Virus record (IMG/VR): IMGVR_UViG_2721755569_000006
Strand: one strand, 5' to 3'
Source of the DNA: an uncultured virus (IMG/VR IMGVR_UViG_2721755569_000006)
Lineage: Duplodnaviria; Heunggongvirae; Uroviricota; Caudoviricetes
DNA: 24,075 bases
In this document: piece after piece, positions 1,926-18,566 of the stretch
How the letters are laid out: every line of letters starts with the position of its first letter
How positions within the stretch are numbered: position 1 is the first letter of the stretch
Translations under genes and position numbers: made by a program
The notes under the pieces: model-generated
Seen by the model: only the letters and a program-made list of their open reading frames with translations
Told to the model about the DNA's origin: nothing
The model's database searches: none

Positions 1926-2762
1926 TCATTGAACAATCTTCGCTGCTTTCAACAACCCGCCCACCACCTGCACCGTCACACGCTCCAGCTCGGCCGTTTC
2001 CAGCGCCTGCCGGATCGCCGGCCGGACCGTGTCGTACCCCGGCACCTGCGTCGGCCGCGCGGCTTCCACCTTGACGATGTAGCGCTGGCTGCCCGCTTCG
2101 ACCGGCGCGGTGCTCGCCGCGCCCACGGCCAGCGCCGCGATCTCGCGCGCCAGCGGCAGCGGCAGGTTCTGCGTCTTGCCCTCTTCCACCGGCACCTTGA
2201 AGCTCACCCAATCCATGTCGCCGCCGCGCACCTTGTTGGGCGCCGTGCTGTACTGCTGGGCCAGCTTGGCGAAGTCGCCGCCCTGCTTGAGCTGTGCCAG
2301 GACCTGCGCGGCGGTCACATCGTCGCCGAGCTGGATCACGCGCGCCTTGTACTCCTTGTCGCCCAGGCTGGCGACGATGGCGTCGTAGCGCGCCTTGACC
2401 TGCTCTTCGGTGATGGGCGCGGGCTTGATGTTGTCCTTCAGCCAGGCCTGGGTGATAACCGCGTCGTGCGCTTCCTGCATGGCCTGCTTGACTGCCGGCA
2501 GCTTGTCGTAGGCCGGGTTCTTGGCGGCCTGCTGGCGGAACAGCTCGCGCGCGATCAACTGCTGCTTGAGCGCCTGCGCGACCTGCGGATTGGCCTGCGC
2601 GCCGCTCTGGGCGATGGCGCGGTCGAGCTGTTCCTGCGTGATGCGGGTGCCATTGACGATGGCGATGACGCCCGGCGGCAGCGTGTCGGCCTGCGCCGGC
2701 AACGTTGCGAAAGCGGCCAGGGCAAGCGCAGCCAGGGCGGCGCGGCGGATAGGAGCGTTCAT
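1926..2762 (-). CDS. periplasmic parvulin/PpiC-fold chaperone (PrsA/SurA-like), 278 aa
   Basis: ATG at 2762 with an AAGGA RBS; signal peptide MNAPIRRAALAALALAAFATLPAQA; IAIVNG..IT N-domain; rotamase-like GGDFAKLAQQYS...GGDMDWV. Confidence 0.88.
   Translation of the reverse strand: MNAPIRRAALAALALAAFATLPAQADTLPPGVIAIVNGTRITQEQLDRAIAQSGAQANPQVAQALKQQLIARELFRQQAAKNPAYDKLPAVKQAMQEAHDAVITQAWLKDNIKPAPITEEQVKARYDAIVASLGDKEYKARVIQLGDDVTAAQVLAQLKQGGDFAKLAQQYSTAPNKVRGGDMDWVSFKVPVEEGKTQNLPLPLAREIAALAVGAASTAPVEAGSQRYIVKVEAARPTQVPGYDTVRPAIRQALETAELERVTVQVVGGLLKAAKIVQ

Positions 2763-18566: not shown

Follow-up and report, generated by a model that had tools for sequence, protein, structure and literature searches.

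Two-partner secretion (TPS) is taught as a minimal form of export, in which one passenger (TpsA) uses one channel (TpsB), and contact-dependent growth inhibition (CDI) serves as a leading model of bacterial competition. What, then, would a second passenger and a chaperone gene contribute to a CDI-type locus with a single channel? This question is raised by a stretch of 24,075 nucleotides (nt) from an uncultured virus of the Caudoviricetes (IMG/VR record IMGVR_UViG_2721755569_000006), the whole of which is called the window in the following. Between its positions 1926 and 18566 a sequence-only reading had described a large toxin-bearing tpsA, immunity genes, a second tpsA without a toxin, tpsB and a gene for a parvulin-fold protein, and had taken this co-directional run for a CDI architecture of its own. 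Comparison with related loci identifies the layout as a conserved module, and with a confidence a little above even we read it, from the conservation of its parts, as a four-component type Vb system for contact-dependent toxin delivery, in which the small TpsA would be a functional partner and not a remnant or a chance neighbour.

Results

In order to place the locus among its relatives we surveyed it from both of its passengers. For the forward survey, an alignment of 14 small-TpsA relatives (alignment A1) was searched against species-representative genomes, the best 80 of 583 related places were retrieved with 10-kb flanks, and all open reading frames (ORFs) of the fetched loci were scored against the proteins of the window. 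A large TpsA with a secretion domain of the large type lies on the same strand and adjoins the triad of small tpsA, tpsB and parvulin gene in 70 of these 80 loci; it is found directly downstream of the parvulin gene in 39 (median gap 67 nt), upstream as in the window in 30, and on both sides in one. The ten loci without a large TpsA all run into a contig end, at most 1.1 kb upstream of the small tpsA or at most 0.4 kb past the last triad gene. TpsB was detected in 77 and the parvulin gene in 71 of the 80 loci.

The reverse survey started from an alignment of the large-type TPS domain (alignment A2) and took the best 80 of 152 relatives, 79 of which were new. Triad genes are seen at 73 of the 79 loci: the full triad stands directly upstream of the large gene in 66, the small tpsA lies downstream in five (Ralstonia), and two show tpsB and the parvulin gene upstream on a contig that is cut. 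Among the six loci where no triad was seen, the flanks of two are too short, and these two are the same genomic places as loci that do show the triad; a third lacks an upstream flank, and the remaining three represent the second large TpsA of a tandem pair. Such pairs, with two large TpsA genes in tandem behind one triad, occur at the Trinickia/Burkholderia loci L121, L134 and L138 (with L131 and L130). Split ORFs aside, none of the surveyed loci holds two separate tpsB genes. In Paraburkholderia xenovorans LB400 it is the large tpsA that appears to be split. Because the layout recurs in 70 of 80 and in 73 of 79 loci, far above chance, it is a conserved module and not a local accident.

This recurrence in both surveys supports the claim of a distinct multi-component CDI-type architecture. 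The sequence-only reading had itself named a small tpsA that commonly occurs without the large one as the finding that would speak against it, and a large TpsA is present at every locus that shows both flanks; its guess that similar gene orders might exist in other Burkholderiaceae has been borne out, across that family and beyond. Two gene orders exist, and the bcpAIOB-like one in the window (large tpsA, immunity gene, small tpsA, tpsB, parvulin gene, or A-I-a-B-P) is the less common, the commoner being small tpsA, tpsB, parvulin gene, large tpsA (a-B-P-A).

To estimate the wider distribution, a profile of the small-TpsA C-terminus (A3) was run against an even sample of 400 Burkholderiales genomes, with no more than six candidates scored per genome; it matches at least seven of them, which is a lower bound; one of the seven, G296, is an unpublished genome and carries no other claim made here. 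The surroundings of five of these matches were inspected, in more distant families of the order: three (G022, G369 and G019) carry small tpsA, tpsB, parvulin gene and large tpsA, one has small tpsA, tpsB and large tpsA, and in the fifth the contig ends inside tpsB. The window itself stems from the Ralstonia solanacearum species complex. Among 144 plasmid records that its triad matches at the level of DNA, 142 are Ralstonia megaplasmids or plasmids; the match has at least 80% query cover at 90-97% identity in 138 records, and the first 3 kb of the large tpsA match 144 Ralstonia records. Many strains of the species complex (e.g. CP084739.1 and CP052107.1) hold the whole four-gene module in two paralogous copies at different megaplasmid sites. 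Strain OE1-1 and CP052107 show large tpsA, small ORFs, small tpsA, tpsB and isomerase arranged as in the window, annotated with generic gene names only.

Within the window, all genes of the module are co-directional on the minus strand, as seen from the ORF calls, and each lies where the sequence-only reading had placed it. That reading had also given gaps of 11 and 17 nt, and both prove exact when read from the sequence: the TGA stop of the small tpsA is followed after 11 nt by the ATG of tpsB at 4531, and the stop of tpsB after 17 nt, which include AAAGGA, by the ATG of the parvulin gene at 2762. Its description of the second passenger as toxin-less likewise agrees with a modelled beta-helix that runs to about residue 830 and with a length of at most 944 residues in the best 150 representatives. 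A scan for promoters and terminators returned counts at or below those expected from shuffled sequence and is uninformative on operon structure.

The small TpsA (846 residues; 4543..7083, minus strand) consists of a signal peptide, a canonical TPS domain, a continuous beta-helix with the invariant residues Cys700 and Cys704, and a conserved, disordered tail. The TPS domain PF05860 (E-value 4.3e-39) is its only Pfam match. An AlphaFold2 model built with A1 as the alignment shows the continuous helix, with a predicted local distance difference test (pLDDT) of 87 and a predicted template-modelling score of 0.81, and then the tail, whose residues 831-846 have a pLDDT below 50. Foldseek matches of this model comprise the secretion domains of FHA and HpmA and, over the whole length, the helices of HxuA (4rm6, 4rt6) and EtpA; no enzymatic or toxin domain is among them. 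Full-length relatives of about 740-980 residues, 40-93% identical, are found in Ralstonia, Cupriavidus, Collimonas and Herbaspirillum, and those of Burkholderia, Paraburkholderia, Pandoraea and Trinickia are shorter in the middle (680-760 residues). The motifs NQV, NPSL and NPNGI are invariant throughout alignment A1.

The tail (about residues 825-846; 4546..4611, minus strand) ends in ...PVSIESHVGLTSWLWQ, and in 77 of 79 homologues the C-terminus is formed by PV.I..H(L/V)G(L/M)(T/V)(S/T)W and two or three more residues, mostly aromatic or Gly/Leu. The tail bears a putative resemblance to the aromatic-X-aromatic preference of SurA. We rejected the idea that the tail is the C-terminal signal of a beta-barrel, since its spacing is off and the tail of the window ends in Q and not in an aromatic residue. 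The profile of the last 247 residues found 233 clusters among 1.84 billion representatives; the best 150 clusters all have at most 944 residues, and in nearly all full-length matches the match lies at the protein end. That this C-terminal module might also be part of large TpsAs was considered and dropped: the BLAST match is weak (E-value 2e-07), and the profile matched three large ORFs weakly, that of the window not being one of them. Judged by these sequence features, the small TpsA is a distinct, constrained family and not a truncated cdiA.

The two passengers also differ in their secretion domains. The secretion domain of the large TpsA (residues 125-404; 17355..18194, minus strand) belongs to the 'large-type' subfamily and carries the relaxed motifs TQV, TDPI and APAGI; large and small TPS domains are about 30% identical, and across loci the identity within either type is 43-88%. 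Where the small type has NQV, the large domain of the window has TQV, and of NPNG only P and G are invariant among large-type domains in alignment A2: the motif reads APAGI or APAGV in the window and another Ralstonia, APGGV in Cupriavidus, APGGI in one Burkholderia, and NPNGI or NPNGV in the others. NCBIfam TIGR01901 (adhes_NPXG) matches the small TpsA and not the large one, whose TPS domain does align to the secretion domains of HpmA and FHA. The NPNG motif is described as crucial for folding and secretion in PMC5422565. The asymmetry of the motifs would fit the small TpsA as the canonical client of TpsB, without proving it.

In front of this domain, the large-TpsA leaders (window 18245-18566, residues 1-107; L004-L162) show a hydrophobic, signal-like segment and then a conserved spacer of 40-90 residues, which ends in AxA and sits just before the conserved mature start APITDP. 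A Burkholderia cepacia complex and Paraburkholderia subgroup in which the large gene lies upstream has a leader without the spacer. The leader of the large TpsAs may be processed in two steps or may be unusually long.

The sole tpsB of the locus (2780..4531, minus strand) starts with an ATG at 4531 in an ORF that is open from a GTG at 4558, and its product matches ShlB (E-value 2.4e-73), POTRA_2 (8.2e-22) and POTRA_3 (1.2e-12) in Pfam. With PF05860 in both passengers and a POTRA/ShlB transporter encoded beside the small tpsA, the locus shows the sequence features of type Vb secretion. Some TpsBs secrete more than one TpsA according to PMC5422565, so that sharing a channel is not new in itself.

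The last gene of the module encodes a SurA/PEB4/PrsA-like parvulin protein of 278 residues (1926..2762, minus strand) with a signal peptide ending in AQA. Pfam assigns it Rotamase_2, Rotamase_3, Rotamase and SurA_N_3; its best sequence match in the PDB is the SurA-like chaperone PEB4 of C. jejuni (3rfw, E-value 4e-07), which is also the first Foldseek match of its model (pLDDT 90; E-value 2.1e-14), followed by HP0175 of H. pylori (6bhf, 5ez1), 4wo7 and SurA, with PrsA also among the top matches. In the alignment to PEB4, ARVIQL stands against AKHILV and RYIVKV against YHVILK, so that both histidines are replaced, and in a family alignment of 115 sequences neither position is conserved as histidine. 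We take the two positions to be the parvulin catalytic histidines of PEB4. Because both catalytic histidines are missing in the family, the protein is probably a chaperone or holdase without isomerase activity. The role of periplasmic chaperone that had been proposed for it fits the signal peptide, the fold and the missing histidines alike.

The CDI character of the locus is carried by the large CdiA/BcpA-like TpsA (2842 residues; 10038..18566, minus strand), which comprises, in order, leader, TPS domain (PF05860, E-value 1.2e-26), beta-helical shaft, a Gly/Ala-rich hydrophobic region, a pre-toxin region and a polymorphic C-terminal toxin. Haemagglutinin-type repeats are recognised by TIGR01731 (25.8 bits against a cut-off of 18), and PF05594 scores just under its cut-off (21.3 against 21.5 bits). 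The variable region starts at AQNAAMNNWLEH, from residue 2456 on, and both VENN and Nx(E/Q)LYN are absent; the strict pattern NN[WYF]L.[HN] occurs in only 6 of 56 complete large TpsAs. Directly 3' of the AQNAAMNNWLEH motif lies a DUF6862 segment (residues 2477-2537; 10956..11138, minus strand), and this part shares 50-57% identity with other large TpsAs of Ralstonia, whose ends differ. The terminal toxin domain, the last 143 residues (10041..10469, minus strand), has no match in Pfam or NCBIfam; in the Atlas it goes with unnamed clusters (0.95-0.96), and MafB (0.87) and ParB/sulfiredoxin (0.83, 0.79) are weak leads.

An ORF of 121 codons (9670..10035, minus strand) adjoins the large tpsA, its first codon lying 2 nt past the stop codon, so that an immunity gene directly follows the toxin end, as is typical of CDI. 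The same 143 terminal residues recur with 89.5% identity at the end of a Paraburkholderia large TpsA (locus L050), directly behind which a 74% identical homologue of the 121-residue protein is encoded; a 65% homologue is present at L056. As toxin end and homologue recur together in L050, the 121-residue protein is the predicted cognate immunity protein, and the two form a shared toxin/immunity cassette. Four further small ORFs follow on the minus strand (9201-9611, with DUF6911; 8496-8987; 7593-8048; 7172-7477) and are candidate orphan immunity or accessory genes. The five small ORFs and the 3' end of the large tpsA form a patch of low G+C content (GC; 48-52%) between tps genes of 66-71%, which is what would be expected of exchangeable toxin/immunity cassettes.

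The last of these small ORFs, a hydrophobic one of 101 codons (7172-7477, minus strand) directly upstream of the small tpsA, differs from the rest of the small ORFs in keeping its place elsewhere in Ralstonia. Right in front of the small tpsA, L005/L086 and L006/L158 carry homologues that are 61-62% identical; L003 has one of 81%, and the homologue at this place in OE1-1 is 81% identical. It may be a fifth conserved component in Ralstonia.

Contigs from two RNA-sequencing libraries of two studies cover tpsB, small tpsA and large tpsA of relatives, the parvulin gene being covered in X2 only, and one contig of 2754 nt spans the junction between small tpsA and tpsB. Cover of 6966-10325 is nil or very low, as expected of the strain-specific part. 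These contigs hint weakly that the genes are expressed in relatives.

On one side the module is bounded by a prophage end, which abuts the large tpsA (window 20436-24075, minus strand) and comprises genes for a tail protein (23539-24075, phrog_6079), phrog_6637 (21363-22184), DUF6127 (21842-22165), an HNH endonuclease (20894-21376) and an endolysin (20436-20906). The provirus of public record G002 extends over both the large and the small tpsA. In CP052107, the neighbours of a 99% identical large tpsA allele are DUF3375, DUF4194 and SbcC-like genes instead; given these non-phage flanks, the toxin locus is probably not phage cargo and the provirus boundary was probably over-called. Within the prophage end, an ORF of 210 codons on the plus strand (22748-23380), in a patch of 55% GC, encodes three copies of a motif like PPADFFHN(L/V)xPWIP(E/D)NAPP; neither Pfam nor PHROG matches it, and the copies are not accounted for by a tandem repeat in its DNA. 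On the other side, just downstream of the parvulin gene, lies a gene for a DUF746 protein with zinc ribbons and a helix-turn-helix (641-1816, minus strand). DUF746-like ORFs also adjoin the module in L035, L047, L059/L154 and L179, hinting at an association with mobile elements.

Discussion

In the working that we propose for the module, one TpsB channel would serve two passengers of different secretion-domain subtype: a large, polymorphic, toxin-tipped filament of the CdiA/BcpA kind, whose toxin would be neutralised by the 121-residue immunity protein, and a small, non-polymorphic beta-helix without a toxin. The dedicated SurA/PEB4-like protein with its inactive parvulin domain would act as a periplasmic holdase, attending to one or both passengers in the unfolded state ahead of export or in its course. 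The small TpsA would be exported first or in parallel and would be kept at the cell surface or at TpsB via its conserved aromatic C-terminal tail, and in this retained form it could support export, presentation or use of the large TpsA. The shared TpsB, the role of the chaperone, the surface retention by the tail and the dependence of the large TpsA on the small one are all elements that we infer; it is linkage and conservation that suggest the hypothetical helper role of the small TpsA for the toxin filament.

A stricter 'four-partner' version can be entertained tentatively, at clearly less than even confidence. In it, the small TpsA would be an obligatory beta-helical pedestal or folding template, retained at the surface and held by its tail at TpsB or in the periplasm, without which the large TpsA would be neither exported nor presented, and the holdase with its dead parvulin domain would keep the passenger competent, possibly including the unexported half of the toxin filament. 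If true, the module would stand as the first known TPS/CDI system to depend on a second TpsA and on a chaperone of its own.

Several observations weigh against a partnership of the two passengers. Both surveys drew on best-scoring relatives in related species, which are not independent draws, and the linkage could reflect common descent of one operon together with a shared need for TpsB. No characterised CDI or TPS system is known to need a second TpsA. Many large-type TPS domains keep NPNGI, so that decay of the motif is not a general reason for a helper. In the forward survey the parvulin gene went undetected despite intact flanks in L023, L050 and L051, the only such cases, and the distant genome G241 carries small tpsA, tpsB and large tpsA without it. 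The RNA-library contigs may come from DNA and cannot show a single transcript. Finally, for the Bordetella chaperone Par27, PMC8151025 reports that a par27 mutant secreted FHA normally.

The strongest competing explanation is that the small TpsA is an independent passenger, for instance an adhesin or aggregation factor, that merely shares TpsB and chaperone with the large one, neither needing the other. In the small TpsA the TPS domain is complete and canonical and the beta-helix self-sufficient, in size and fold class the protein is near HxuA, a stand-alone TpsA, and one common exporter already explains the co-location; some TpsBs, moreover, secrete more than one TpsA with no dependence described in the accessible text of PMC5422565. 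Such independence, however, predicts lone triads, or large TpsAs with tpsB alone, neither of which occurs among the loci with visible flanks, and the four genes have stayed together through a change in gene order and through duplication of the large gene. We consider this explanation rather doubtful, while giving it a real share of the probability.

Still less probable, and in our estimate unlikely, is that small TpsA and parvulin protein chiefly serve TpsB, the tail gating, priming or stabilising the channel, so that the link to the large TpsA would be an indirect one through transporter biogenesis. It is indeed where the triad proteins are conserved that the tail is best conserved, the monomer model shows it disordered, as a segment in need of a partner should be, and SurA-type chaperones normally deliver outer-membrane beta-barrels, complexes of SurA with the beta-barrel assembly machinery (BAM) being among the fold matches of the parvulin protein; other TpsBs, however, need no such factors. 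That the small tpsA is a functionless leftover of a duplicated or truncated cdiA has next to nothing in its favour beyond the roughly 30% identity of the secretion domains and the frequency of gene fragments in CDI loci, and it is already contradicted by conservation at 40-95% identity across several genera, a frame that is open and full-length in nearly all loci, a secretion-domain subtype of its own, and a C-terminal module and tail not found in large TpsAs beyond three weak profile matches.

How does the module compare with characterised systems? The closest is the Burkholderia-type bcpAIOB locus, which is reported from R. solanacearum and Cupriavidus (Anderson et al. 2012, PMC3415462). According to the same paper, the large TpsA comes first there, too, the immunity gene immediately next and TpsB last, the last approximately 300 residues of the TpsA are polymorphic, and full function requires one more gene, located between I and B. 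That gene, bcpO, encodes a protein of 57-172 residues, a lipoprotein in class I, whereas the present locus has an 846-residue TpsA in this place and a parvulin chaperone after tpsB. The window further differs in having AQNAAMNNWLEH and DUF6862 instead of Nx(E/Q)LYN, and most relatives of the module differ in their order of small tpsA, tpsB, parvulin gene and large tpsA. We considered B. dolosa bcp-4 as an instance of the same module and rejected it, its 8-kb gap between I and B being filled with transposases and truncated bcp genes according to PMC10449530. The window itself has the order A-I-(O)-B, and B precedes A in 39 of 70 forward and 66 of 79 reverse loci. A BcpO-like gene is absent 5' of tpsB, where the 846-residue TpsA is encoded, and reading the small ORFs revealed no N-terminal lipobox.

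Parts of the module have counterparts elsewhere. In Bordetella, the gene for Par27 lies outside the fha locus, and FhaS, a paralogue of full size, is not a separate small family; HMW1 of H. influenzae is tethered through its C-terminal 20 residues. The Bordetella FhaB/FhaC system with FhaS resembles the module in that one TpsB can export two TpsAs (PMC5422565), and Par27 in being a parvulin-type periplasmic chaperone that binds a TpsA, FHA, in vitro (PMC8151025). HMW1ABC is likewise a TPS system with a third dedicated partner, whose TpsA is held at the surface by the transporter as described in PMC5422565; it differs in that HMW1C is a glycosyltransferase and in lacking a coupling to a toxin-bearing TpsA. 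HxuA, also of H. influenzae, is a compact, all-beta-helix TpsA of similar size, again without such a coupling. PEB4, HP0175, PrsA and SurA share with the parvulin protein a helical chaperone module of N- and C-terminal parts, an inserted parvulin domain and an export signal, while in the family of the module both catalytic histidines are replaced and the gene lies within a TPS operon. In cdiBAI and cdiBCAI loci of the E. coli type the transporter gene precedes the filament gene, as in the commoner order of the module, and accessory genes are possible in the operon; the accessory CdiC of cdiBCAI (class IV), however, is a cytoplasmic acyltransferase, and the accessible parts of PMC8510554 and PMC5422565 describe no second TpsA or periplasmic chaperone gene.

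A population study describes cdiA-cdiI-cdiO-cdiB-like clusters with small ORFs and insertion sequence elements as recombination hotspots (PMC7725338), and a 2026 preprint counts Ralstonia 'hemagglutinin TPS clusters' that contain fhaC and one or more fhaB genes (10.1101/2025.09.26.675681). In the openly searchable literature, with subscription-only papers and preprint supplements outside the scope, neither the small TpsA nor the parvulin gene turned up as a described component of any TPS or CDI locus.

In a large clade, CDI-type loci carry two additional conserved genes, in a module that is, as far as we found, apparently uncharacterised. Among its carriers are plant pathogens (Ralstonia), bacteria associated with cystic fibrosis (the Burkholderia cepacia complex and Pandoraea) and inhabitants of soil (Cupriavidus, Paraburkholderia and Collimonas). 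Should the extra genes turn out not to be needed, the small TpsA would still be a widespread, uncharacterised surface protein that is co-expressed with contact toxins. If they are needed, the list of parts minimally required for toxin delivery of this class would change, and the module would offer a natural system for studying how one TpsB chooses between two secretion-domain subtypes, as well as a candidate answer to the question of how long, unfolded passengers survive in the periplasm.

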